Shown here: in pieces, positions 3,019 to 41,706 of the stretch
Layout: every line of letters begins with the position of its first letter
Numbering within the stretch: position 1 is the stretch's first letter
NCBI RefSeq assembly: GCF_024502345.1
Contig: NZ_JALDNN010000001.1
Strand: one strand, 5' to 3'
Source of the DNA: Escherichia coli
GTDB taxonomy: Bacteria > Pseudomonadota > Gammaproteobacteria > Enterobacterales > Enterobacteriaceae
DNA: 64,000 nucleotides
Position numbers and translations under genes: made by a program
Notes under the pieces: model-generated
The model's input: only the letters and a program-made list of their open reading frames with translations
The model's database searches: none
Told to the model about the DNA's origin: nothing

Positions 3019-5469
<2,451 letters not shown>

Positions 5470-26136: not shown

Positions 26137-27576
<1,440 letters not shown>

Positions 27577-27782
27577 TCATACAAATAAGATGACGGCATT
27601 TTACTCGCACGTTCCATGAAAATCCTTTGCAAAGCGTAATGTTTCAAATGCACAAAACTTTTATACTCTAAGAAATCAGGATTGCACCAGTACAAGCAGC
27701 CTGATGTTTGACGAGTATTTAACTTGTTATGAATAACATAGAATAGCAGCCATTCACTTTTTCTACGAATCAGGAACCCTCC

Positions 27783-29063
27783 ATGAGTAAGTCTGAAAAT
27801 CTTTACAGCGCAGCGCGCGAGCTGATCCCTGGCGGTGTGAACTCCCCTGTTCGCGCCTTTACTGGCGTGGGCGGCACTCCACTGTTTATCGAAAAAGCGG
27901 ACGGCGCTTATCTGTACGATGTTGATGGCAAAGCCTATATCGATTATGTCGGTTCCTGGGGGCCGATGGTGCTGGGCCATAACCATCCGGCAATCCGCAA
28001 TGCCGTGATTGAAGCCGCCGAGCGTGGTTTAAGCTTTGGTGCACCAACCGAAATGGAAGTGAAAATGGCGCAACTGGTGACCGAACTGGTCCCGACCATG
28101 GATATGGTGCGCATGGTGAACTCCGGCACCGAGGCGACGATGAGCGCCATCCGTCTGGCCCGTGGTTTTACCGGTCGCGACAAAATCATTAAATTTGAAG
28201 GGTGTTACCACGGTCACGCTGACTGCCTGCTGGTGAAAGCCGGTTCTGGCGCACTCACGTTAGGCCAGCCAAACTCGCCGGGCGTTCCGGCAGATTTCGC
28301 CAAACATACCTTAACCTGTACTTATAACGATCTGGCTTCTGTACGCGCCGCGTTTGAGCAATACCCGCAAGAGATTGCCTGTATTATCATCGAGCCGGTG
28401 GCAGGCAATATGAACTGTGTTCCACCGCTGCCAGACTTCCTGCCAGGTCTGCGTGCGCTGTGCGACGAATTTGGCGCATTGCTGATCATCGATGAAGTAA
28501 TGACCGGCTTCCGCGTGGCACTGGCTGGCGCACAGGATTATTACGGTGTGGAACCGGATCTCACCTGCCTGGGCAAAATCATCGGCGGTGGAATGCCGGT
28601 AGGCGCATTCGGTGGTCGTCGTGATGTAATGGATGCGCTGGCCCCGACGGGTCCGGTCTATCAGGCGGGTACGCTTTCCGGTAACCCAATTGCGATGGCA
28701 GCCGGTTTCGCCTGTCTGAATGAAGTCGCGCAACCGGGCGTTCACGAAACGTTGGATGAGCTGACAACACGTCTGGCAGAAGGTCTGCTGGAAGCGGCAG
28801 AAGAAGCCAGAATTCCGCTGGTCGTTAACCACGTTGGCGGCATGTTCGGTATTTTCTTTACCGACGCCGAGTCCGTGACGTGCTATCAGGATGTGATGGC
28901 CTGTGACGTGGAACGCTTTAAGCGTTTCTTCCATATGATGCTGGACGAAGGTGTTTACCTGGCACCGTCAGCGTTTGAAGCGGGCTTTATGTCCGTGGCG
29001 CACAGCATGGAAGATATCAATAACACCATCGATGCTGCACGTCGGGTGTTTGCGAAGTTGTGA
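27783..29063 (+). CDS. hemL: glutamate-1-semialdehyde 2,1-aminomutase HemL
   Basis: 426-aa ORF starting [26 protein letters not shown] (class III aminotransferase). Confidence 0.97.
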
Positions 29064-29070
29064 TGATTTT

Positions 29071-29091
29071 GCCTCGCCCACCGGGCGAGGC
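29071..29091 (+). terminator. hairpin terminator between convergent hemL and fhuB
   Basis: Perfect inverted repeat GCCTCGCCC-ACCG-GGCGAGGC followed by a T-rich run on the plus strand. Confidence 0.5.
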
Positions 29092-29097
29092 ATTCTA

Positions 29098-31080
29098 TTA
29101 ACGGCTCTGCTTTCTCAACAAATAGATAAAATATGGCGCGCCGATAAAGGTCGACAGCAGCCCTGCCGGGATCTGGAATGGAAACAGCACCATCCGCCCA
29201 CACCAGTCAGCGAACACCAGCAGTAAACCACCCACCAGCGCCGAAATTACGATGTGTGGCATCGTCCGTCGAAAGCCCATCATCCGCGCAATATGCGGTG
29301 CCATTAAACCAACAAAACTCAACGGTCCAATAGTCATCGTCGCGGTCGCCGTCAGGCAAGCCGCTAACAGCAGCAGCGCAATTCGCGTCGGCGTCAGCGC
29401 CATTCCTACGGCTCGGGCGGTATCACCACCCAGCGGTAAAATGGTCAGCCAGCGGCGGCACAGCGGGGTAATCGCCAGCAAAATCACCATCACAATTCCG
29501 GTGCGCCAGACCTGCGCATCGGTCGCGTTGTAGGTCGAACCGGAAATCCAGGTCAGCACTTGCGCCATTCGCGGGTCACCACTTGCCTGCAACATCATCA
29601 AAAGCATGGTGAACGCGGTGCTTAACGCCATCCCCGCCAGTAACATGCGGTGTGGGGAAAATCCACCGCGGCCGGCGGCGATCATAATGATCAACAGCGT
29701 CACCGCCGCGCCGAGACTGCCTGCAGGTAACAGCCAGCCAAAGGCATTACCCGGCACCAGAAACAGCATCAACACCACGCCAAACGCCGCGCCGGAGCTA
29801 ATCCCCAGCACTTCCGGGCTTGCCATCGGGTTTCCGGTCAGCCGCTGAATAATACAGCCCGCCACCGCCAGCATGACGCCCGCAAACAGCGCCGCCATAA
29901 TTCGCGGCCAGCGCCAGGGCATTAAATCCTCGAGCAACGCCCCGCTCGCCCACGTCCAGCCGTGCGCATCACGACCAAACGACAGCGCCACTACCACAGC
30001 CATCAACAGCAGCACGCCGCCCGCGAGGGCAAACGCCAGCACATGTTGGCGTTCAGTCGCGACACGATCGTTGACCTTCATATCCGGCGCGCTAATGCTG
30101 CGTAAACGCGGCAGCAGCCACAGTAGCAGCGGCGCACCGATCAACGCAGTGACCGAACCGGTGGAAACTTCCATCCACACGCGAGTCAGCCAGAGGATGA
30201 TTTGATCAGAAAGCCACAGAATTAACGCACCAATCAGCGACGCCAGCATCAACCGTGGCAACAAACGCCGCGCCCCCAGCATTTTTGCCAGCAGTGGCGC
30301 GAACAACCCGATAAAGCCGATAATCCCCACTGCGTTCACCAGCAGCGCACTGATGACTATCGCCAGCGACAGCGCCGCCAGACGCGCGAGCGACAAGGCC
30401 AGCCCGAGATTGCGCGCCACGCCATCATCAAGCCCCATCAGGGTTAACGGGCGAAGTAGCAATAACGTCAACATCACGCCGCCCAGCAACTGCGGCCATA
30501 AACGCTCAACGCCGCCCCAGTTGGTTTGCGTCAGCGTTCCGGTGCTCCACAGGAACATGCTTTGCAGCTGGTCGTGATGGAAGATAACCAGTAGCTGATT
30601 AATTGCCCCGCAATAAAGGCTCACCACCAGCCCCGCGAGAATAAGCGTAACCGGCGAAAGCCGTTTCCCCCACGCGACGCCAAAGACGATTAAGCCAACG
30701 ACACAAGCGCCCACCAGTGCGGCAAACTGGCTCGCCATAGCACCTGGGATCGCCCAAAGTGTGGTGACGGTAATTCCCAGTTGCGCGCCTGTAGCAACGC
30801 CAAGTGTCGTCGGTTCCGCCAGCGGATTACGCAGCACTTGCTGAAACAGCACGCCCACCAGCCCCAGGCCTGCGCCCACCAGCAGCGAAATCGCCAGACG
30901 CGGCAACAAGCTGTAGTGAAAAATCATCTGCTCGATGACGTCAATATCCGGCGACCAGGCGGCCTGCGCCCACTGACTGCGCGGCAGCGCCTGTGAGAAG
31001 TTCATCCAGGTTAGCGCCGTAGCGACAATCACTAACAGCGCCAGCAATAACGCCGGGAAAAGCGCAATTCGTTTCCTCAC
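29098..31080 (-). CDS. fhuB: ferric hydroxamate ABC transporter permease FhuB
   Basis: 660-aa double-permease ORF; start overlaps the fhuD stop by 4 nt. Confidence 0.97.
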   Translation of the reverse strand: MRKRIALFPALLLALLVIVATALTWMNFSQALPRSQWAQAAWSPDIDVIEQMIFHYSLLPRLAISLLVGAGLGLVGVLFQQVLRNPLAEPTTLGVATGAQLGITVTTLWAIPGAMASQFAALVGACVVGLIVFGVAWGKRLSPVTLILAGLVVSLYCGAINQLLVIFHHDQLQSMFLWSTGTLTQTNWGGVERLWPQLLGGVMLTLLLLRPLTLMGLDDGVARNLGLALSLARLAALSLAIVISALLVNAVGIIGFIGLFAPLLAKMLGARRLLPRLMLASLIGALILWLSDQIILWLTRVWMEVSTGSVTALIGAPLLLWLLPRLRSISAPDMKVNDRVATERQHVLAFALAGGVLLLMAVVVALSFGRDAHGWTWASGALLEDLMPWRWPRIMAALFAGVMLAVAGCIIQRLTGNPMASPEVLGISSGAAFGVVLMLFLVPGNAFGWLLPAGSLGAAVTLLIIMIAAGRGGFSPHRMLLAGMALSTAFTMLLMMLQASGDPRMAQVLTWISGSTYNATDAQVWRTGIVMVILLAITPLCRRWLTILPLGGDTARAVGMALTPTRIALLLLAACLTATATMTIGPLSFVGLMAPHIARMMGFRRTMPHIVISALVGGLLLVFADWCGRMVLFPFQIPAGLLSTFIGAPYFIYLLRKQSR

Positions 31081-31967
31081 GCTTTACCTCCGATGGCGTT
31101 ATCCAGAACACGCACAAAGTGCATTGCCGAAAGCGTTGCACCATAAAACCAGACTGCGGGTACGTGCTGAAAGCGCCCTGTACGGACAAACGGCATGGCC
31201 TGCCACAGCGGGGTCGCCATTAGCGCATCCATGTCTTTGCTGTTGTCGTGATCAAAACAGAGCACATCAACGTCTTTATACGCCGCCAGACGATCGATAC
31301 TGACGGCGGTACTGCCCCAGAAGTTGGTTTCCCCTTGCCAGGCATTTGGGATGCCGTACTCATCGAGAATTTCCTGGAACAAGCTGTTTGGACCGAAGAC
31401 CAGCATATGGCGCGGATCGATAAGCGTCGTCAGCAGTAACGGGCGTGCACCACGCTTCACAAAGCGGGGTTTCATGCTGCGGATAAAGTCTTCGTATTGC
31501 GCTAAATGCGTTTCCGCTGCGCTTTGCAGGTTAAGTAAATCTGCCATTTCCGTCAGCGATTTACGCGCCATCGCCAACGGCTGTTTGCCGTCACTGAAGT
31601 TAAATCCGCGCCCCGGCGCAATACGTGCCAGCATTTCTGATGAAGGGCCATATCCTGCCGACCAGACCATAAACGACGGTTTCATTTCGGTCAGCAGTTC
31701 AAGGTTAGGTTCTGTACGCAAACCGACGTCAATCACTGAGTCCGGCAATGGTGGTTCGCTGACCCACAGGCGATAGTTGATGGTATCCGCCACGCCGTAA
31801 GGCACGATGCCGAGCGCCAGCAGTAATTCCACCGGCAACCACTCCAGCGCCACAATACGATTGGGGTCAATAGCCGCCGCGTGGGCGGTATTCATCTGCC
31901 ATAACAACGGAGAAAGCGCCATCGCCGTTAACAGTCGACGGCGCGAAATAAGAGGTAAGCCGCTCAT
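31077..31967 (-). CDS. fhuD: ferric hydroxamate periplasmic binding protein FhuD
   Basis: 296-aa product from the second ATG (MSGLPLISRRRLLTAMALSPLLW… Tat-like signal); its ATG overlaps the fhuC stop by 1 nt. Confidence 0.95.
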   Translation of the reverse strand: MSGLPLISRRRLLTAMALSPLLWQMNTAHAAAIDPNRIVALEWLPVELLLALGIVPYGVADTINYRLWVSEPPLPDSVIDVGLRTEPNLELLTEMKPSFMVWSAGYGPSSEMLARIAPGRGFNFSDGKQPLAMARKSLTEMADLLNLQSAAETHLAQYEDFIRSMKPRFVKRGARPLLLTTLIDPRHMLVFGPNSLFQEILDEYGIPNAWQGETNFWGSTAVSIDRLAAYKDVDVLCFDHDNSKDMDALMATPLWQAMPFVRTGRFQHVPAVWFYGATLSAMHFVRVLDNAIGGKA

Positions 31968-32764
31968 CAATAAACAAAACTCACAGGTGCAGCACCCGCC
32001 GGATGCGGCAAAATACCCATCGGGATGCCATAAATCATTTCGAGGGTTTCGCCGCGCATAATTTCCGCAGGCGTTCCCTGAGCAATCATTTCACCACCGC
32101 GCAGGGCGACCAGATAATCACAGTAGCGTGCCGCCATATTGATATCGTGCAGCACGGCAATGACCGTCAGGCCACGTTCCTGACTTAAACGGTGCACCAG
32201 CGCCAGCACATCAACCTGGTGGGCGATATCCAGCGCCGAAGTCGGTTCGTCGAGCAACAGACAACGGCTATCCTGCGCCACCAGCATGGCGATCCACGCC
32301 CGCTGACGTTCGCCGCCAGAGAGACTATCGACCAGCCGATGCGCCAGCGGTTTTAAGCCAACCAGCGAGATAGCTTCCTCGACCTTTTCGCGATCTGCCG
32401 CACCAAAGCGCCCCAGCGCGCCATGCCACGGGTAACGACCAATCGCCACCAGTTCACGCACGGTCATCCCTTCTGCCGGAGGAAGCTGCTGCGGCAAATA
32501 AGCCACTTTGCGGGCAAACGCTTTGCTGCTCCAGCTTTCCAGCGGCTGGGCATCAAGAAGAATCTCCCCTTCTGACGGAGGCTGATGACGGCCAAGCATT
32601 TTGAGCAGAGTGGATTTACCAGAACCGTTGTGACCAATCAGACCGGTCACTTTCCCGGTAGGAAAGGTTAACGACAGCGGATGCAAAAGCGTGCGCCCGG
32701 GCACACGAAAGGAGATATTACGCAGTGCAAAAGTGGTATCGGAATGATTCGTGTATTCCTGCAT
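31967..32764 (-). CDS. fhuC: ferric hydroxamate ABC transporter ATPase FhuC
   Basis: 265-aa product from the ATG at 32764..32762 (MQEYTNHSDTTFALRNISF…); Walker A GHNGSGKST and ABC signature LSGGERQR. Confidence 0.95.
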   Translation of the reverse strand: MQEYTNHSDTTFALRNISFRVPGRTLLHPLSLTFPTGKVTGLIGHNGSGKSTLLKMLGRHQPPSEGEILLDAQPLESWSSKAFARKVAYLPQQLPPAEGMTVRELVAIGRYPWHGALGRFGAADREKVEEAISLVGLKPLAHRLVDSLSGGERQRAWIAMLVAQDSRCLLLDEPTSALDIAHQVDVLALVHRLSQERGLTVIAVLHDINMAARYCDYLVALRGGEMIAQGTPAEIMRGETLEMIYGIPMGILPHPAGAAPVSFVY

Positions 32765-32814
32765 AACAGCCAACTTGTGAAATGGGCACGGAAATCCGTG
32801 CCCCAAAAGAGAAA

Positions 32815-35004
32815 TTAGAAACGGAAGGTTGCGGTTGCAACGACCTGACGTTCTGCGCCCCAGAAGCAGCCATAAGTCTGGAAGCAACTGGCAACATACT
32901 CACGATCGAGCAAATTGTTGACGTTCACAGCAAGGCTGGATCCCGCCATACCAAAGCGTGCCAGATCATATTTTACAACAGCATCCATTACAGCTGCGCT
33001 ACCCACTTTAAAAGTGTTTGCCGGATCACCATAGCTGGAACCAATAAAACGACCACCTGTTCCCAATGTTAAACCAGAAAGCGGCCCTTCATTGAAGGTA
33101 TAATCCCCCCAGAGAGATGCCATATGCTCCGGTACTTGTTCTGGAGTTTTACCTTTGAGATTGGTGTCTTTGGTGTATTCCGCATCGGTGTAGGTATAAG
33201 AAGCCGTCAAGTTAATATTGGCATTTAACGCCGCTTTTGCTTCAAGTTCCACACCACGAGCGCGAATCTCACCTGCTGGGACTTGCGCTAATGGGTTTGT
33301 TGGGTCTGCTGTCAGGTTATTTGTTTTCGTCAATTGATAGACTGCGCCCGTAACAACGACCGGCATATCATTCGGAACATATTTTACGCCAGCTTCATAC
33401 TGTTCACCTTTCGATGGCTTATAGGAAATGCGCGGGTTGCTCCACAGATCGAAAGCACTCGGTTCAAAGGACTGGCTATAGCTAAAGTAAGGTGAAATAC
33501 CATTATCGAATAAGTAATTTACACCACCGCGCCAGGTGAACTGATGATCATTGCGCTCAATATAACCTTCAGTCGGCGTATAAGAGTTTTCACGAACAGT
33601 GGTCGCTTGCTTAGACCAATCGTAGCGTCCCCCCAGAGTGAATACCCATTTATTCCATTCCGCCTGATCCTGAACATAAATACCTGTTTGTTTGCTTTCA
33701 TTCATCTGGTATGGCTCTGCGCTACCAAATGCAAAGTATTCAGGGTGATATTTGTTATAAAGATCGATGGATGGTGCGGATCCAAAGCTGGCATTGATAT
33801 CATTACGCATCCGCATGAAGTCTACCCCTGTCAGCAAAGTATGCTCGACGTCACCTGTAGCAAACTTACTTTCAAGTTGGGTATCAACGCTAAAGTTTTG
33901 TAGACGCTCATTATCCACCACTGTCCCGCGGTTTAGGGTATGACCATCACCAGCAATCCCTGTGCCATAAACACTTTTCTGTGAGGTTTTCATTTCACTG
34001 AAACGCAGATTCTGACGCACGGTGAAGGTGTCATTAAAACCATGTTCAAAACTATATCCCACCATTTTCTGGTTACGGGAGTATGTATTATTCGATGCAC
34101 CTTCATTGAAGTCAGTCGGTAGACGCTTACCATTAGGCAATGGCTCAACGGTCCCCTCTTTCGGCAACCAACCGTAATAACCCGTTTCTGGTTCATTCTG
34201 GAAATAGGACAGGAAAGTAAAATTGGTTTTGTCGTCTGGACGCCATGAGAATGATGGAGCAATGGTATAACGCTGAGATTCAGAGTTTTTCTGCTGTTCG
34301 TTTGTTGAGCGAGCGAGGCCCGTCAAACGGTAAGAGAACTCACCGTTATCATCCAGTGCATCACTGAAATCGAATCCGGTCTGAAACAGATTATCCGTCC
34401 CCATTTTAAACTGAATTTCTTTCAGGGGTTCAGTGGTCGGACGTTTACTCACCATAGAAATAATCCCACCAGGATTACTTTTTCCATAGAGAACAGACGT
34501 CGGCCCACGCATCAGTTCAACCCTCTCGAGCATGTAAGGATCAATCACAGCATCGTTATAAAAGTTGCCCTGAAGTTTTAGTCCATCAAGGTAATTATTT
34601 TGATTCAGACCAACAGATGAGAAACCACGAATGATAACAAAATCATATGTATTAGAAGCACCACGACTGCTAACCGTAACGCCAGGTGTATAACCTAATG
34701 CTTCTTTTACAGACTGAAATTGATGCATCTGCATCTCTTCATTTGTCACAACCGAAATAGACTGCGGCGTTTTTTCAATTGGTGTATCCGTTTTAGTCGC
34801 AGTAGCAGAGTGCTTCGCCGCAATAGTTGCAGCAGGCCCCCATGCGCTTTCTTGCGGCGCAGGTGCAGCGGTAACGGTGATAGTGTCTTCTTTCGGTTCA
34901 ACCGCTGCCTGTGCATAAACAGACATGCCGCTAACCGCTGTGGCTACTACAACTGCGATTTTACGCAGTGAGTGTTTTGGCTGAGCAGTTTTGGAACGCG
35001 CCAT
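32815..35004 (-). CDS. fhuA: ferrichrome outer membrane transporter FhuA, divergent mosaic allele (729 aa)
   Basis: TonB-dependent receptor with signal peptide and C-terminal …VVATATFRF; the N-terminal ~60 and C-terminal ~30 residues match the K-12 protein as recalled, while the central plug/barrel/loop region is substituted throughout and shorter. Confidence 0.93.
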   Translation of the reverse strand: MARSKTAQPKHSLRKIAVVVATAVSGMSVYAQAAVEPKEDTITVTAAPAPQESAWGPAATIAAKHSATATKTDTPIEKTPQSISVVTNEEMQMHQFQSVKEALGYTPGVTVSSRGASNTYDFVIIRGFSSVGLNQNNYLDGLKLQGNFYNDAVIDPYMLERVELMRGPTSVLYGKSNPGGIISMVSKRPTTEPLKEIQFKMGTDNLFQTGFDFSDALDDNGEFSYRLTGLARSTNEQQKNSESQRYTIAPSFSWRPDDKTNFTFLSYFQNEPETGYYGWLPKEGTVEPLPNGKRLPTDFNEGASNNTYSRNQKMVGYSFEHGFNDTFTVRQNLRFSEMKTSQKSVYGTGIAGDGHTLNRGTVVDNERLQNFSVDTQLESKFATGDVEHTLLTGVDFMRMRNDINASFGSAPSIDLYNKYHPEYFAFGSAEPYQMNESKQTGIYVQDQAEWNKWVFTLGGRYDWSKQATTVRENSYTPTEGYIERNDHQFTWRGGVNYLFDNGISPYFSYSQSFEPSAFDLWSNPRISYKPSKGEQYEAGVKYVPNDMPVVVTGAVYQLTKTNNLTADPTNPLAQVPAGEIRARGVELEAKAALNANINLTASYTYTDAEYTKDTNLKGKTPEQVPEHMASLWGDYTFNEGPLSGLTLGTGGRFIGSSYGDPANTFKVGSAAVMDAVVKYDLARFGMAGSSLAVNVNNLLDREYVASCFQTYGCFWGAERQVVATATFRF

Positions 35005-35026
35005 TGGTATATCTCTGATGTAAAGT

Positions 35027-35077
35027 GAATGATAACGTAAACGAGAATGATTATTATAAAGATAAGATAATATTCGA
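35027..35077 (-). promoter_or_regulatory. Fur-box region in the fhuA promoter
   Basis: Overlapping GATAAT/ATTATC hexamers (gaatgattattataaagataagataatattc) 25-75 nt upstream of the fhuA ATG. Confidence 0.6.
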
Positions 35078-35223
35078 AACGCTGGCGGGTTCGCAAGCGG
35101 TACGCAATCTGAGCGTTCCTGAAGGGTTAATAAACAACCAGATGAAAAGAAAGGGTTAATATCTTAGATGGGATGTTATTTTACCGGATGGCAACTCGCC
35201 ATCCGGTATTTCACGCTTAGATG

Positions 35224-37758
35224 TTAATTACTACCAAACATATCCTTGATCCAACCGGCTACACCGTCTCTGTCTTTCTGCTCTTGCTGAGCAGGTTGCT
35301 GTTGCGGCTGTTGCTGCGGCTGAGAAGACTGATCAAACGGATTGCCTGACGGCTGCTGCTGCATCTCACTCTGCTGGCACAGCGATTGCGGATCGCTGGT
35401 CCAGACCGGCAAGACACGCATGCCACCGCTGCAAACAAAGTTGCCGTCGTAGTCCACGCCCATATCTGCAATATCTTCTGGCGGAACAAGATTCAGCGGC
35501 GTTGGCGTCTGGTTAGCCAGATAACGCTGATAAATCGACATTGCCCCGCTGGCTCCATACAGTTTGGTCGGCTGGTTGTTATCACGGCCTACCCAGGTGA
35601 TGGTCACCGTGCTGCCGTCAATGCCTGCAAACCAGGTATCTACGTTATTGTTGGTAGTCCCTGTTTTCCCTGCCAGATGCAGGTTCGGGTATTTCGCCCC
35701 AAGCTGACGACCCGTACCACGTTGTACCACCTGCTGCATGGTCCATAGTGTCAGATACGCCGCCTGCGCCGGAACAGCGCGTTCTGCCTGCGGGAAGCTC
35801 TGATACAGCACCTTGCCATCTTCCGCGATTACCGAACGCAGTGCAGAAAGCGGTGCACGGTTACCACCGCTGGCGATGGTCTGGAACGCCTGCGCCACTT
35901 CGATTGGCGTTAAGTTCAACGCCCCCAGCAGCATCGCCGGAACCGGATGCAGCTGATCTTTCGGTACGCCCAGTTTGATCCAGGTATCCGTAACTGCAGG
36001 CAGCCCCAGCGCCATCCCCAGATTTACCGTCGGCACGTTCATCGAACGGGTCAACGCATCCACCAGCATCACTCTGCCGCTTTCGCTATAACGACGGTCA
36101 TCGTTCTGCGGTGACCAGACCTGGCCATTCGGCTGACGCAGCGCGATTGGCGCATCGGCAATCCACGTGTTCAGGCGATAGATTTTCGGCTGGCTTAAAG
36201 CCGTCAGATAAGTCGCTGGTTTTGCAAGGGAACCAATCGAACGACGCGCCTGCATCGCACGGTTGTAGCCCGCAAACTGCGGCTCAGAACCTCCGACCAT
36301 CGCACGAACTTCACCACTAAAGCGGTCGACGACCACAATCGCAGTTTCAAGATCGCTCAACTTACGCTGTTTCTTCAGTGCCGGAATGCCTTCCACGGCG
36401 GCTTTTTCTGCCGCGTCCTGGGCCACCGAGTCAAAGGTAGTGAAGATCTTCACGCCGGAGAGATCTTTTACCTTATCGCCCAGTTTTGCCTGCAGCTCCT
36501 GACGCACCAGTTGCATAAAGGCTGGCTGAGGAGAGATCACCCCACCGCGCGGCTGAACCCCCAGCGGACGGGCACTCAACATGTCATAGAGTTCTTGATC
36601 AATAATCTGTTGCTGTTGCAGCAGACGCAGCACCAGATTACGTCGCTCCAGCGCCAGTTTTGGGTTACGCCACGGGTTGTAGATGGACGCCCCTTTCACC
36701 ATACCGACTAACAGCGCCTGCTGGTCGAGGCTTAGCTCTTCTACCGGGCGACCAAAGTAATACAAGCTTGCCAGCGGGAAGCCGCGGATTTCGTTGTCGC
36801 CGCTCTGACCGAGATACACCTCGTTCATATACAGCTCAAGAATACGGTCTTTGCTGTAACGCGCGTCCATGATCAGCGCCATGTAAGCTTCGTTCGCTTT
36901 ACGCCAGTAAGAACGCTCGCTGGAGAGGAACAGGTTTTTCACCAGCTGTTGCGTCAGCGTACTCGCACCCTGTACCGTGCGACCTGCGGTCAGGTTTGCC
37001 AGCACCGCACGTCCGATGGAGTAGAGGCTGATGCCGTCATGCTCGTAAAAATGACGGTCTTCTGTCGCCAGCAAAGTATCCACCAGCAAATCCGGGAAAC
37101 CACTGCGCGGCACAAACAGACGCTGCTCACCGTTTGGCGAAGAGATCATGGTGATCAGACGCGGATCAAGACGGAAAAAGCCGAACTGACGGTTGTTCTC
37201 CATATTGACGATCGTCGCCAGATGATCACCATCAAAGGTCAGACGCGCACGCACCTGCCCTTCTTTACTGTCCGGGAAATCAAACGGACGGCGGATCATC
37301 TCAATGCTGTTGGCCTGCACGGTAAATTCGCCAGGACGGGTCATTTTCGACACCTGGCGATACTGGGTCGCCTCCAGCAGCTTCACCATCTCGTTCTTGC
37401 TGATGGTCATGTCTGGCTCAAGGTTGACCATTCGGCCATAAACTGCCGCAGGCAGTTGCCAGACCTTGCCATCAATACGGCTACGAATTTTTTGATCGAG
37501 ATAAACGCCGTAAATGGCGATCAGCACGGCAAAAACGATAGCCAGTTTTAACAGCAGCCATAGCCAGCCGCGTTTGCCACGAGGCTTACGCCCTTTGCCT
37601 TTGCCCTTACCTTTGCGCGGCATCGGTTCTTCATCCTCATAGTCATCATAATCGTCGTAATCATCGTCATCTTCGTAACGACGACGGCTTACCTTTTGTT
37701 TGACCGGACGCGTCGGTTTCCCTTTGCGTCCAATTGGCTCGCGGTCATTCCCGGCCAT
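35224..37758 (-). CDS. mrcB: penicillin-binding protein 1B (bifunctional glycosyltransferase/transpeptidase)
   Basis: 844-aa product from the ATG at 37758..37756 ([15 protein letters not shown]…); acidic and lysine-rich cytoplasmic tail, transglycosylase then transpeptidase regions. Confidence 0.95.
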
Positions 37759-37855
37759 GCTTTTTCTCCGCAATATTCAGGCGCAAAAGCCCGATTTTCT
37801 GTTCTTCTGTTGCAAGACAGAAGAAGATATCTCTCAAAATTTGTGCTCGATCGGT

Positions 37856-37941
37856 CCCCTCTCCCTTGAGGGAGAGGGTTAGGGTGAGGGTGAACGTGCG
37901 CGCTGATGCCCTCACCCCGGCCCTCTCCCACAGGGAGAGGG
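37856..37941. repeat. GC-rich nested palindromic element in the hrpB-mrcB intergenic region
   Basis: Three consecutive GC hairpins: CCCTCTCCC-ttga-GGGAGAGGG (37857..37878), GGGTGAGGG…CCCTCACCC (37882..37917), CCCTCTCCC-aca-GGGAGAGGG (37921..37941); the outer arms can also pair with each other. Confidence 0.5.
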
Positions 37942-37953
37942 AGAAAACCAACC

Positions 37954-40383
37954 TTACGAATACTTTTTCGTCCGTCGCGTCGGTGCCGTGTTTGCCGGGT
38001 CGTCCGGCCAGACGTGTTTGGGATAACGCCCTTTCATCTCCTTTTGCACCTCACGATACGCCCCTTTCCAGAAGGCCCCCAAATCACGCGTGATTTGCAG
38101 CGGCCTTTGGGCAGGGGAAAGCAACTCCAGCACCAGCGGCACGCGCCCCTGGGCGATCGTCGGATTGGTGGCCTCACCAAACATCTCCTGCATTCTCACC
38201 GCCAGCGCGGGCGGGTTATCTTCATGATAACGAATGGCGATCCGGCTTCCCGTCGGCACAGTGTAATGCGCAGGCAATTCACTATCCAGACGTTGCTGCA
38301 TTCCCCAATCAAGTAATCCGCGTAGTGCCTGATAAATGTCGAGTGATTTCAGGCCGCGTAGTGAATGCACGCCGGTCATATGTGGCAGCAGCCACGTTTC
38401 CAGCGTCGCCAACAAACTTTCATTATCAACCGCAGGCCAGTCATATTCCGGCAACCACTTTGCGGCGCATAACAAACGCAAGCGTAGCTGTTCCGCTTCC
38501 GCCGTCCAGTTGAGCATGCTTAAACCTTTATCACGAATGCCATTAAGCATCGCCTGATGCAACTCGTCTTCCGAGGGTTTCGCCAGCGGCTGCACTTTCA
38601 CCGTCAGCAGACCGATTTGCAGCCGACGCCAGGCTTTCAGCGTACCTTGCGCGTCATCCCACTCCACAGTGTCAGACTGCTGTACCAGCTGCGGGCAGCG
38701 TTGTACTAACTCATCAATATCGACCGGCAGCGCCAGTAAAATCCGCGCATCCGGCGAGGCGCTGCCCTGCAATAATAACGGTGCGATCAACCATTCGTGG
38801 CGGCTTAGCGCGTCGTCGGCATCGAGCATCGCTCCCATGCCGTTTGCCAGTTGATAGCGTCCATTTTGCCCACGGCGATGAGCAATGCGATCGGCAAACG
38901 CCCCGGCAAGTAGCGGCGCGATAAGCGAACTGTCTGCCTCACCGCCGCGTACGTTTAAGCGTTTTAACAGTTGCTGACTACGTTGCTGCCAGGCTGGTTG
39001 ATTGCGCGAAAACGCCACGCCCAGGTCACTATTGCCCATCCGTGGCGGCTCTTCGAGAATGGCGGCAATTTTTGCCGCGGTAGCAGCTTCGTCGTCGTTC
39101 TTCGCGCTAACCAGCATTGCCGCTAAACGCGGATCGTTACCCAGCGCTGCCATTTTTTGCCCTTGCGCACTAAGCCGTTCACCCTCCAGTGCCCCCAGCA
39201 TTTGTAACAGACGTTTCGCGGCCAGTAGATTCACTACTGGCGGTTGATCCAGCCAGCTCATCTGCGCCGGATCGCTGCATCCCCATTGCAGTAATTCCAT
39301 CAGCAAACCGGAAAGATCGCTTTGTAAGATCTCCGGTTCACTTTGCGCCGCGGCGCGTTCTGCTTGTTCTTTGGCGATTAAATGCAGGCTGATACCCGGC
39401 TCCAGACGCCCGGCGCGCCCGGCACGCTGCGTCATGGATGCCTGGCTAACGCGTTGAGTAATCAGTCGCGTAAGCCCCGTGCGCGGATCAAAACGCGCCA
39501 CACGCTCCTGGGCACAATCCACCACCAGACGAATACCTTCAATGGTTAAACTGGTTTCAGCAATATTGGTCGCCAGCACCACTTTGCGCATCCCTTGCGG
39601 TGCCGGGAGGATCGCTTTTCGCTGATCGTTCAGCGACAACGCGCCATACAGCGGGCAGAGCAACACATCACTGCCGATGCGCGAAGCCAGTTGTTCCTGC
39701 ACACGCTGAATTTCTCCGACGCCAGGTAAAAATAACAGTAATGATCCGCTTTCCTGACGCAGCATTTCGGCGGTGGCTACCGCAACGGCTTCGTCAAAAC
39801 GCTGATGCGCGGGCAGCGGTAAATAATGGCGTTCAACCGGAAACGAGCGCCCTTCTGAGATGACGACGGGCGCTTCTGGCAGCATTTGCTGCAAGCGGTC
39901 GTTATCCAGCGTAGCCGACATAATCAGCAGTTTAAGGTCATCACGCAGACCTTGTTGCACATCGAGTAACAGCGCCAACGCCAAATCCGCCTGCAAGCTG
40001 CGCTCATGAAATTCATCGAGGATCACCAATCCAACACCGCTCAGTTCCGGGTCACGCTGGATCATGCGCGTCAGCACGCCTTCGGTAACCACTTCCAGGC
40101 GGGTATTCGGCCCGACGCAGTTTTGCGCACGCATCCGGTAGCCAACGGTATCGCCTGGCTTTTCGTTAAGCAGCTCCGCCAGTCGTTGCGCGACGTTACG
40201 CGCCGCCAGACGACGCGGCTCCAGCAGGATAATTTTCCCGTTAATGCCGGGATGCGCCAGCAGTTGCAGCGGCAGCCAGGTTGATTTCCCGGCCCCGGTC
40301 GGCGCACTTAATAATACCTGCGGCGCACAATCGAGAGCGGTAAGTAATTCAGGTAAGACGGCAGCAACGGGCAACGACGACAC
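37954..40383 (-). CDS. hrpB: ATP-dependent RNA helicase HrpB (DEAH-box), GTG start
   Basis: 809-aa product from a GTG (plus-strand cac at 40381..40383) giving MSSLPVAAVLPELL…; Walker A GAGKST and DEFH motif. Confidence 0.9.
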   Translation of the reverse strand: MSSLPVAAVLPELLTALDCAPQVLLSAPTGAGKSTWLPLQLLAHPGINGKIILLEPRRLAARNVAQRLAELLNEKPGDTVGYRMRAQNCVGPNTRLEVVTEGVLTRMIQRDPELSGVGLVILDEFHERSLQADLALALLLDVQQGLRDDLKLLIMSATLDNDRLQQMLPEAPVVISEGRSFPVERHYLPLPAHQRFDEAVAVATAEMLRQESGSLLLFLPGVGEIQRVQEQLASRIGSDVLLCPLYGALSLNDQRKAILPAPQGMRKVVLATNIAETSLTIEGIRLVVDCAQERVARFDPRTGLTRLITQRVSQASMTQRAGRAGRLEPGISLHLIAKEQAERAAAQSEPEILQSDLSGLLMELLQWGCSDPAQMSWLDQPPVVNLLAAKRLLQMLGALEGERLSAQGQKMAALGNDPRLAAMLVSAKNDDEAATAAKIAAILEEPPRMGNSDLGVAFSRNQPAWQQRSQQLLKRLNVRGGEADSSLIAPLLAGAFADRIAHRRGQNGRYQLANGMGAMLDADDALSRHEWLIAPLLLQGSASPDARILLALPVDIDELVQRCPQLVQQSDTVEWDDAQGTLKAWRRLQIGLLTVKVQPLAKPSEDELHQAMLNGIRDKGLSMLNWTAEAEQLRLRLLCAAKWLPEYDWPAVDNESLLATLETWLLPHMTGVHSLRGLKSLDIYQALRGLLDWGMQQRLDSELPAHYTVPTGSRIAIRYHEDNPPALAVRMQEMFGEATNPTIAQGRVPLVLELLSPAQRPLQITRDLGAFWKGAYREVQKEMKGRYPKHVWPDDPANTAPTRRTKKYS

Positions 40384-40456
40384 AAAACGCTCCAGAGGGT
40401 TAACATTCTTCGCGCCACATTGTAGCATCGCGGTAATTCATAACCGAGTGCCTCAC

Positions 40457-41706
<1,250 letters not shown>

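Follow-up and report, generated by a model that had tools for sequence, protein, structure and literature searches.

A chimeric fhuA of the E3 class in Escherichia coli, with ordinary E. coli ends, a deeply divergent core and a phage and bacteriocin receptor surface that is likely altered

The window, a 64,000-nucleotide stretch of E. coli contig NZ_JALDNN010000001.1 (assembly GCF_024502345.1), contains the locus mrcB-fhuACDB-hemL, in which fhuA is the first gene of fhuACDB; the same context is annotated in K-12 and in strain AL.H8. The features that matter for the argument are as follows.

31967..32764, minus strand: fhuC, which opens the downstream fhuCDB transport genes; 98.6% nucleotide identity to K-12, E. 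coli backbone
32815..35004, minus strand: fhuA coding sequence, 729 aa, intact, allele class E3, RefSeq WP_000124381.1
32815..32877, minus strand: 3' E. coli-backbone segment, the last 20 codons and stop; 63 of 63 nucleotides as in K-12
32866..32886, minus strand: cysteine pair C707/C713, aligned with K-12 C692/C698, in loop 11
32878..34815, minus strand: divergent core, codons 64-709 (1,938 nt), comprising the entire barrel, every surface loop and the greater part of the cork
33268..33324, minus strand: loop 8, residues 561-579; 53% identical to K-12 and the same as L8 of S. Typhimurium
33412..33465, minus strand: loop 7, residues 514-531; 2 aa longer than in K-12 (Indel 6 of Wang et al.)
33568..33594, minus strand: loop 6, residues 471-479; 5-aa insertion relative to K-12 at TPTEGYIE (Indel 5 of Wang et al.)
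33706..33780, minus strand: loop 5 region, residues 409-433; shorter than in K-12 by a net 8 aa, modelled loop 415-430
33940..33960, minus strand: tip of loop 4, residues 349-355 (GIAGDGH) by alignment, modelled as a tight turn at 351-355
33945/33946, minus strand: junction, between D353 and G354, of a 17-aa deletion in L4 seen in the alignment with K-12
34816..35004, minus strand: 5' E. coli-backbone segment, the 33-aa signal peptide and mature residues 1-30; 189 of 189 nucleotides as in K-12
34873..34887, minus strand: TonB box, DTITV, mature residues 7-11; the stretch EDTITVT is as in K-12
35005..35223, minus strand: mrcB-fhuA intergenic region, the same as in K-12, with 100 of 100 matches in all sliding windows across 35005-35254

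The protein is exactly RefSeq WP_000124381.1, which is labelled MULTISPECIES, and the DNA of the gene is 100% identical to the fhuA of AL.H8 and of O152:H23 Res13-Lact-ER01-35, both annotated with that accession. Against the NCBIfam FhuA equivalog NF007465 the protein scores 1409.4 bits (cutoff 803), profile positions 1-726 being covered by residues 1-729; FoxA, which comes next, scores 592 against a cutoff of 1300. FhuA chains in the PDB are matched at E=0 over residues 34-729, and an AF2 model of moderate quality (mean pLDDT 65, with the cork/plug and several loops poorly modelled) has TM-scores of 0.83-0.87 to 1BY5, 8B14 and 8A8C. Sequence matches and model together give the plug and 22-stranded beta-barrel of FhuA; the model serves here only to show the fold and the hairpin of L4, as it is too weak for residue-level contact mapping. 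The iron-regulated promoter of fhuA presumably lies in the intergenic region between mrcB and fhuA, and because that region is identical to the K-12 one, regulation of fhuA is presumably unchanged.

The likeness to K-12 breaks off inside the gene. In the alignment with K-12 the first mismatch is at window position 34815 and the last at 32878. The 5' segment that is identical to K-12 is just 72-87% identical in other genera, and at the other end the last 20 residues are identical, with two differences among the last 34. Between these ends the core has about 70% nucleotide identity to K-12, with pS 0.78 and pN 0.17, and the whole protein is 77% identical in an alignment of 722 residues that has 32 columns with gaps. 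The flanking genes hrpB, mrcB, fhuC, fhuD, fhuB and hemL are 97-100% identical to K-12, with pS of only 0.04-0.10, so the divergence is limited to the fhuA core and has sharp edges, a pattern well outside what chance would give. An initial annotation of this gene, made from the letters alone, had described a K-12-like signal peptide, a K-12-like stretch of about 30 mature residues after it and a K-12-like C-terminal end of about 30 residues around a middle substituted throughout, and it had called for a sliding-window comparison; that comparison and the alignment bear the description out, with the core at 32878-34815. The same annotation saw DNA richer in AT than its neighbours, as is the case: window fhuA is 45.8% GC, K-12 fhuA 51.2%, and the flanking mrcB and fhuC 55-60%. 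At third codon positions the values are 0.41 for window fhuA and its core, 0.53 for K-12 fhuA and 0.58-0.62 for mrcB and fhuC. The window fhuA is thus a chimera in which E. coli ends, codons 1-63 and the last 20, surround a deeply divergent core. Two sharp junctions around codons 64-709 are the signature of homologous recombination inside fhuA, and intragenic recombination of this kind would have joined the divergent core to ordinary E. coli ends.

What has the exchange done to the cell surface? K-12 FhuA, which is 747 aa long as the initial annotation stated, has cysteines at mature positions 318, 329, 692 and 698. Its long L4, with Cys318-Cys329 and Tyr325, is absent from the window protein, in which ...SQKSVYGTGIAGDGHTLNRGTVVDNERLQNFSVDTQ... 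aligns to ...SQNSVYGYGVCSDPANAYSKQCAALAPADKGHYLARKYVVDDEKLQNFSVDTQ... of K-12 and a 17-aa gap takes out both loop-4 cysteines. The annotation was therefore right that the Cys-pair segment is missing, and that the 729-aa ORF has only two cysteines, both in SCFQTYGC: these are C707 and C713, there is no cysteine before residue 707, and the pair is invariant across 65 orthologues. In the model the L4 turn at 351-355 joins strands 327-350 and 356-383. Residue 352 (33949-33951), within that turn, is G, N or S in the E3 class and A in other genera. Identity to K-12 is 14% in L4, 23% in L5 (over K-12 394-419), 33% in L6, 38% in L7, where the two extra residues lie in SAFDLWSNPRISY, and 53% in L8; S428N in L5 and I526V in L7 are polymorphic within the class. 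In L8 the K-12 residue D552 is kept, and E554 is replaced by T, F557 by L and F558 by A. The window protein accordingly lacks both marks of the K-12-type (E1) receptor surface, the long disulfide-bonded L4 and an L8 with E554, F557 and F558.

The remainder of the protein is far closer to K-12, with identities of 100% in the TonB box, 97% in L3 and 91% in L11, and the plug-barrel salt-bridge residues are kept. The elements that bind ferrichrome are L3, L11, the plug apices and aromatic residues of beta7-beta9. Eleven residues reportedly form the ferrichrome pocket (Ferguson/Locher 1998); nine of them are kept (R81, G99, F115, Y116, Y244, W246, Y313, F391 and F693), and Q100L and Y315T differ. 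Unchanged affinity for ferrichrome is not guaranteed. By alignment, then, the parts that would handle ferrichrome (TonB box, L3, L11 and most pocket residues) appear conserved, and the putative docking loops L4-L8 are replaced; the roles of FhuA loops in ferrichrome binding and in phage use are taken from PMC10373560. The window protein would import ferrichrome via TonB and FhuCDB.

The allele is already known: it is common, it is a named RefSeq protein and its class has been published. Wang et al. 2018 (bioRxiv 10.1101/320069; Infect Immun 86:e00573-18) described cluster E3 by a short L4 and L5 and a longer L6 and L7, and paired it with Salmonella cluster S2. The window protein has no Indel 3 (L4) or Indel 4 (L5) insert, unlike E1, S1 and E2, and it has Indel 5 (L6) and Indel 6 (L7); it is 93-95% identical to the proteins of S. 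enterica and S. diarizonae, versus 77% to those of K-12, O157, CFT073 and ST131. The divergence is concentrated in the phage and bacteriocin loops, L4-L8, and the allele is not an unusual or strain-specific one: complete E. coli genomes with the E3 class number 562 out of 5,426 (about 10%), HS, ST410 and ST38 among them. Nor is the missing L4 disulfide a peculiarity of this allele, since a short, Cys-free L4 is the commonest FhuA state across the Enterobacteriaceae and the long disulfide L4 occurs only in some types, K-12 included. To the published record the present analysis adds the exact breakpoints, the allele frequency, and evidence for the DNA-level antiquity and unusual AT-richness of the core.

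Within the class, WP_000124383.1, which Feng 2019 named, is the allele of HS and of the ST410 strain 020032 (WCHEC020032); Feng et al. 2019 reported replacement of fhuA by recombination in ST410. That protein resembles the window protein in having 729 aa, two cysteines, short L4 and L5, long L6 and L7 and the same junctions to the E. coli backbone, with 98.6-98.8% nucleotide and 99.5% amino acid identity. The window allele and the HS allele differ at G352N (L4 tip), D385E, S428N (L5) and I526V (L7). WP_000124381.1 is the rarer sub-variant, since matches at 99% or better number only 12-16 among the 562 genomes. Hybrids that are half E3 and half another class were sought with the 5', middle and 3' thirds of the core; each third matches the same 562 genomes at 95% or better, so none were found. 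Identical fhuA genes do occur in different flanking haplotypes. The E3 core is inherited as one block, and it has moved between E. coli lineages by recombination. In E. coli Br_112_kylling the E3 allele is split into two partial matches.

A close counterpart outside Escherichia is the S2 type of S. enterica (S. Typhimurium LT2, UniProt Q8ZRQ2; S. diarizonae), which has the same length of 729 aa and the same cysteine pattern and falls in the same 90% cluster. The S. Typhimurium protein is 95% identical to that of the window; L8 is identical, and L4, L5, L6 and L7 are each one or two residues apart. Salmonella S2 differs in that the N-terminal 63 residues and the DNA are species-specific, the core has about 80% nucleotide identity with pS 0.80, core GC3 is 0.55 rather than 0.41, and a periplasmic turn reads IDH where the window has VEH (the 'Sub1' marker of Wang et al.). 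K-12 FhuA (E1; 1BY3, 2FCP, 8A8C, 8B14) shares with the window the locus, operon, promoter region, first 63 and last 20 residues and fold; it differs in its 17-aa L4 segment with Cys318-Cys329 and Tyr325, an L5 longer by 8 aa, an L6 shorter by 5 and an L7 shorter by 2. We take the window fhuA to be functional and to belong to cluster E3, the second major FhuA class of E. coli, and put the probability of this explanation as a whole, chimera and altered surface included, at roughly 0.8.

Where did the core come from? Its pS to every sampled genus is 0.74-0.81, versus 0.51-0.62 for the flanking genes, values near saturation that limit what can be resolved about the direction of import. The K-12 and CFT073 cores match their flanks (0.58-0.63 versus 0.54-0.62), and the K-12 core against C. 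braakii gives 0.60, about equal to the flanks. Composition is likewise set apart: the E3 core has a GC3 of 0.41, against 0.49-0.67 for every relative and 0.53-0.55 for the remaining E. coli classes, and synonymous sites that differ show a 2:1 excess of A/T. We lean, without great conviction, towards an old import of the E3 core from an unsampled donor richer in AT. The import would be old in E. coli as well, since diversity within the E3 class (dS 0.055, with dN about 0.003) is as large as in the K-12 class (dS 0.045), a sign of long residence.

Might the E3 core instead be the resident Escherichia allele, with the K-12 and CFT073-type cores (E1 and E2) as imports that replaced it in most lineages? 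We at first favoured this on plain nucleotide identity, because the E3 core is 80-82% identical to those of Pseudocitrobacter, Salmonella and Citrobacter, just as the flanking mrcB and fhuC are. A short, Cys-free L4 is also the family's usual state, E3 is as diverse within its class as E1, and the E3 core is present in a divergent Escherichia lineage (L003) too. The synonymous-site analysis weakened the case, since E3 is more diverged from its same-type relatives than the flanks are and it is the K-12 and CFT073 cores that keep pace with theirs; the GC3 of the E3 core is moreover atypical of E. coli, that of E1 and E2 typical, and E3 is a minority allele at 10%. All E. coli classes share a 5' end whose GC3 is 0.41 (over 63 codons only), the same as the E3 core, and this was considered as a sign that E3 is native; it was set aside because fhuA of many other genera generally starts with a low GC3 too, which makes the value uninformative on this point. 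We consider residence of E3 unlikely, though it deserves to be kept in mind.

The initial annotation's broader proposal, a recombinant or horizontally acquired allele, divides at this point. Mosaicism by recombination stands, on the identical ends, saturated core, sharp junctions and foreign composition; the core was not, however, recently acquired from any sampled genus, because against every one of them it is saturated at synonymous sites. A recent move into E. coli from Salmonella S2 or another sampled enterobacterial genus would fit the 93-96% protein identity to S. enterica, S. diarizonae and Pseudocitrobacter within one 90% cluster, and Wang et al. took the short branches of the protein tree for recent acquisition (bioRxiv 10.1101/320069). 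At the DNA level identity to these relatives is just 80-82%, pS exceeds that of the flanking genes, as it does between every pair of genera that share the type, and among 100,044 species representatives scanned none outside Escherichia had DNA with more than 82% nucleotide identity to the core; such a move is very improbable. Slightly less probable still is divergence in place, with point mutations accumulating faster under positive selection and recombination playing no part: Chen 2006 and Petersen 2007, to judge from papers that cite them, reported positive selection on fhuA in E. coli, and the G/N/S hotspot at residue 352 would suit local diversifying selection, but saturated synonymous sites stand directly beside identical codons and genes across sharp junctions, the shift in composition runs over the whole 1.9 kb with multiple indels, and the same protein type occurs in at least eight genera. 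Equally slight is the chance of a decaying, non-functional receptor that persists because loss of FhuA gives phage resistance, a fate that fhuA pseudogenes in some Salmonella serovars and the split copy in Br_112_kylling might suggest, for all six translated E3-class sequences have an intact ORF, pN across genera is 0.02-0.05, the TonB box, salt bridges, L3 and L11 are conserved, the protein matches the curated FhuA model over its full length, and a dN/dS of about 0.04-0.06 within the class shows that E3 is under purifying selection in E. coli.

Returning to an old import from an AT-rich donor, a wider reading may be considered, tentatively and at somewhat less than even odds. The E3/S2-like types could be an ancient trans-generic balanced polymorphism under frequency-dependent pressure from phages and bacteriocins, the E. 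coli copy having come from an unsampled AT-rich lineage and exchanging K-12-type enemies for Typhimurium-type ones. The reasoning is that the types have about 95% protein identity across genera, yet at the DNA level they are saturated at synonymous sites and have diverged further than the genes beside them. If so, FhuA types outlast enterobacterial genera, and frequent recent exchange, the view drawn from the protein tree, is not the cause.

What would the replaced loops mean for the phages and toxins that use FhuA? K-12 FhuA is the receptor of T1, T5, phi80, colicin M, MccJ25 and albomycin. EL4 and EL5 account for 16 of the 27 hydrogen bonds of T5 pb5, and no loop is needed more than EL8 (PMC9586334, where EL7 is Glu501-Ser516 and EL8 is Thr546-Glu564); L8 is the loop most required by SO1-like phages as well as by T5 (PMC9586334, PMC10373560). 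Colicin M requires L3, L7 and L8, and import of MccJ25 fails via S. Typhimurium FhuA. T5 is not adsorbed by S. Typhimurium, a result obtained on whole cells with O-antigen; the FhuA type of the strain is uncertain, as the Salmonella T5 preprint calls the FhuA of its own strains 96-100% identical to that of E. coli, which misfits a Typhimurium-type protein. ES18 has FhuA as its receptor. Since docking loops L4-L8 have been exchanged for versions almost the same as those of S. Typhimurium, the window allele is likely to have altered phage and bacteriocin sensitivity. S. typhimurium FhuA reportedly confers sensitivity to ES18 and not to T1, T5 or colicin M (Killmann et al. 1998; Graham & Stocker 1977), a finding given no weight here. 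With the changed docking surface, T5 pb5, T1/phi80-type phages, colicin M and MccJ25 should bind poorly or not at all, and phages fitted to the Typhimurium-type surface, such as those like ES18, may be able to use E3 FhuA. The literature searched holds no phenotype data for the E3 class: Wang et al. 2018 (bioRxiv 10.1101/320069) left the effect of FhuA clusters on susceptibility for future testing, and the BASEL paper, a 2026 receptor-prediction preprint, Olivenza 2020 and a Salmonella Tequintavirus preprint contain no FhuA allele-class data.

FhuA is not alone among E. coli surface proteins in this kind of variation. The genes ompC, ompF, ompA and lamB (bioRxiv 10.1101/2021.09.21.461324) resemble fhuA in having conserved loci, divergent classes that do not follow strain phylogeny, and variation concentrated in phage-bound surface loops. 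They differ in that short hypervariable regions are shuffled, where in fhuA nearly the whole core is exchanged as one block. Most plausibly, the FhuA polymorphism is kept up by phage and bacteriocin pressure. The initial annotation's proposals, that selection by phages or bacteriocins formed the allele and that susceptibility has changed, are inferences.

The allele itself is no discovery; its phenotype is an easily testable question. FhuA is the point of entry for T1, T5, phi80, many recently isolated siphophages, colicin M, MccJ25 and siderophore-antibiotic conjugates such as albomycin, and about one in ten E. coli genomes carries the E3 surface, among them commensal HS, the clinically important ST38 and most of ST410. 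With an alternative FhuA that frequent, results obtained with K-12 FhuA may not carry over to E3 strains, and this would bear on phage host range, receptor prediction, the design of phage cocktails, and the spectrum of bacteriocins and 'Trojan horse' antibiotics.

The fhuA gene of the window is a minus-strand ORF (32815-35004) of 729 aa, and as judged from its sequence and predicted fold its product is a bona fide FhuA. The protein matches the NCBIfam FhuA equivalog end to end (score 1409 bits, cutoff 803) and solved FhuA chains at E=0; an AlphaFold model of moderate quality (pLDDT 65, 80-88 in the barrel) gives TM-scores of 0.83-0.87 to FhuA structures; and the gene lies in the normal order, mrcB-fhuACDB-hemL. 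The 90%-identity protein cluster that contains this FhuA (window:32818-35004:-) also has 265-aa FhuC members, presumably a clustering artefact in which, for example, fused fhuA-fhuC gene calls serve as a bridge.

How does this receptor differ from that of K-12? The initial annotation had proposed a recombinant allele with conserved ends, a divergent middle and no loop 4 (L4) cysteine pair, a reading that proved largely correct. The gene is identical to K-12 over its first 189 nt and last 63 nt, and the first and last mismatches, at window 34815 and 32878, bound a divergent core of codons 64-709. Sliding windows over 14 kb, run as the annotation had suggested, place an abrupt fall to 60-75% identity inside fhuA only, hrpB, mrcB, the mrcB-fhuA spacer, fhuC, fhuD, fhuB and hemL being 97-100% identical to K-12. 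Alignment with the 747-aa K-12 FhuA leaves only two cysteines, C707 and C713, as had been claimed, against the four of K-12 (mature positions 318, 329, 692 and 698); the K-12 segment PANAYSKQCAALAPADK and both L4 cysteines are lost in a 17-residue gap. The absence of the L4 disulfide is the normal state of this FhuA type and no lesion. The suspected AT-richness also held, the gene having 45.8% GC (GC3 0.41) against 55-60% in the flanks; K-12 fhuA has 51.2% (GC3 0.53).

Short patches of 87-91% identity to K-12 occur in hrpB (window ~38005-38154), fhuB (~30590-30790) and hemL (~28463-28612), the rest of these genes being 97-100% identical; recombination with other E. coli lineages probably left these small tracts. 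The fhuB-hemL spacer (window 29063-29097) is ~34 nt, as it is in strain HS, against 157 nt in K-12, where it holds two REP/BIME-like palindromic repeats; the spacer is thus polymorphic for the presence of a repeat element.

Is the allele new? Wang et al. 2018 (bioRxiv 10.1101/320069; Infect Immun 86:e00573-18) described E. coli FhuA clusters E1-E4 and Salmonella clusters S1 and S2, with E3 grouping with S2, with inserts in L4 and L5 in E1/S1/E2 and in L6 and L7 in E3/S2, and they put the pattern down to recombination that is local and to exchange between enterobacteria. The indels of the window FhuA relative to K-12 (L4 -17, L5 -8, L6 +5, L7 +2) match this pattern exactly, and on that evidence it is an E3 protein. 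The exact protein is RefSeq WP_000124381.1, labelled MULTISPECIES, found on at least 1,000 contigs and shared with AL.H8 and an O152:H23 pig isolate. The alleles of HS and ST410 strain WCHEC020032 (WP_000124383.1) and of ST38 (WP_001545231.1) are 1.2-1.4% in nucleotides and 3-4 residues away. Feng et al. reported that in ST410 WP_000124383.1 was replaced through recombination by a <74%-identical allele, and a 2021 preprint extended the mosaic pattern to ompA, ompC, ompF and lamB. By Megablast at ≥95% identity, the window fhuA is present in 562 of 5,426 complete E. coli genomes. Since this class is ordinary, frequent, annotated and published, the allele is already known. E. coli has at least two further classes, those of K-12/O157 (747 aa) and CFT073/ST131 (752 or 749 aa), both with four cysteines and each 73% identical in nucleotides and 77% in amino acids to the window allele; fhuA of the CFT073/ST131 class is 87% identical in nucleotides to that of K-12.

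Searched one third at a time (5', middle, 3'), the core finds the same 562 genomes each time, which indicates that the core moves as a single block; no E3/K-12 hybrids were seen in these separate searches of the 5,426 genomes. The whole-gene search also placed 77 genomes in an 80-90% identity band that is absent when single thirds are used, and that probably reflects averaging of the identical ends of the gene with pieces of the core that match weakly. The 5' third has matches at ~73% in 91 genomes, which may represent another class, such as E4. In E. coli Br_112_kylling (NZ_CP182371.1) the E3-class allele appears as two partial matches, which cover 52% and 47% of adjacent query thirds and carry no annotation beyond 'TonB-dependent siderophore receptor'; this fhuA is probably interrupted or truncated. 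Contamination or mis-binning most likely explains a fhuA locus 98.4% identical to the window allele on a 2.3-kb contig of a MAG called 'Parasporobacterium sp.' and an Enterobacter-type mrcB-fhuA-fhuC in 'Chryseobacterium sp. 18061'.

What does the exchanged core do to the receptor? The signal peptide, TonB box and plug-barrel salt-bridge residues (R93, R133, E522, E571) are unchanged from K-12, loops 3 and 11 are 97% and 91% identical, and 9 of the 11 ferrichrome-pocket residues that were compared are kept. Identity falls to 14% in L4, 23% in L5, 33% in L6, 38% in L7 and 53% in L8, which carries F557L and F558A. In published work, ferrichrome uses L3, L11 and beta7/beta9; the T5 protein pb5 contacts EL4-EL11, with 16 of 27 hydrogen bonds to EL4 and EL5 and EL8 the most critical loop; and colicin M requires L3, L7 and L8. 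There is thus a clean split, in which nutrient-handling parts are kept but parasite-docking parts are exchanged, and from the sequence we infer that ferrichrome transport would be retained and the spectrum of enemies changed. S. Typhimurium FhuA, also 729 aa and 95% identical, has almost the same surface, its L8 being that of the window protein and its other loops differing by 1-2 residues. Published work reports that it does not import MccJ25, and that FhuA is the receptor of ES18. A preprint reports that S. Typhimurium cells do not adsorb T5, though O-antigen was present and the stated FhuA identities are inconsistent with a Typhimurium-type protein.

Three pairwise comparisons within the class locate the replacement differences at the tip of L4 (G352N/S), in L5 (S428N), in L7 (I526V) and in a periplasmic turn (D385E/E387G). 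The one hypervariable residue of the class is encoded at:

Window 33949-33951, minus strand: codon 352, loop 4 tip

Here the window and HS differ at four adjacent nucleotides (gene nt 1053-1056). The window has G at residue 352; HS and ST410 have N, ST38 and a Citrobacter sp. have S, and most other genera have A. Such loop-tip variation hints at fine-scale diversifying selection.

Byte-identical fhuA genes occur in the window, AL.H8 and O152:H23 Res13-Lact-ER01-35 on differing mrcB and fhuB haplotypes, which differ from those of the window by 1.5-3%, in different segments (window 26815-41004). A divergent Escherichia lineage (L003) has a pS of 0.10 to the window in the core against 0.17-0.24 in fhuC and fhuD. 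Because the same fhuA sits in different haplotypes and the L003 core is closer than its neighbours, these comparisons indicate that the core has moved by recombination within Escherichia. Upstream of position 3812, L003 has 43.6% GC and lacks mrcB; in ST131 strain 4993 (L087, 1-2781) genes for a fimbrial usher and a fimbrial protein, not mrcB, lie directly upstream of fhuA. Across the family, the locus is syntenic in all 85 orthologues examined, and the types cut across genera: Citrobacter has at least four, Buttiauxella three, and Lelliottia nimipressuralis and Trabulsiella odontotermitis have two each; the commonest L4 state is short and Cys-free.

Where did the E3 core come from? No recent donor is seen among the sampled genera. 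Pseudocitrobacter faecalis has the nearest protein (96% over the core), followed by S. diarizonae (94%) and a Citrobacter sp. (93%), yet core DNA identity to these is only 80-82% and core pS, at 0.74-0.81, exceeds that of mrcB and fhuC (0.51-0.62). To K-12, the core has a saturated pS of 0.78 and a pN of 0.17. At odds of about 60:40, we favor an old import from an AT-richer lineage outside those sampled, given the lack of a recent donor, a core GC3 of 0.41 that is below every relative (0.49-0.67) and the other E. coli classes (0.52-0.55), and the flank-like synonymous distances of the K-12 and CFT073 cores to Citrobacter, Buttiauxella and Phytobacter relatives; differing synonymous sites in the core show a 2:1 A/T excess. 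Against import, dS within E. coli is as large for E3 (0.055) as for the K-12 class (0.045). Resolution is limited by the saturation of synonymous sites. The excess of core pS over the flanks, with a pN to relatives of only 0.02-0.05, recurs between any two genera with an E3-like type, which argues that the type is old everywhere and kept by purifying selection. An old type with saturated synonymous sites qualifies the reading of recent acquisition that is drawn from protein trees.
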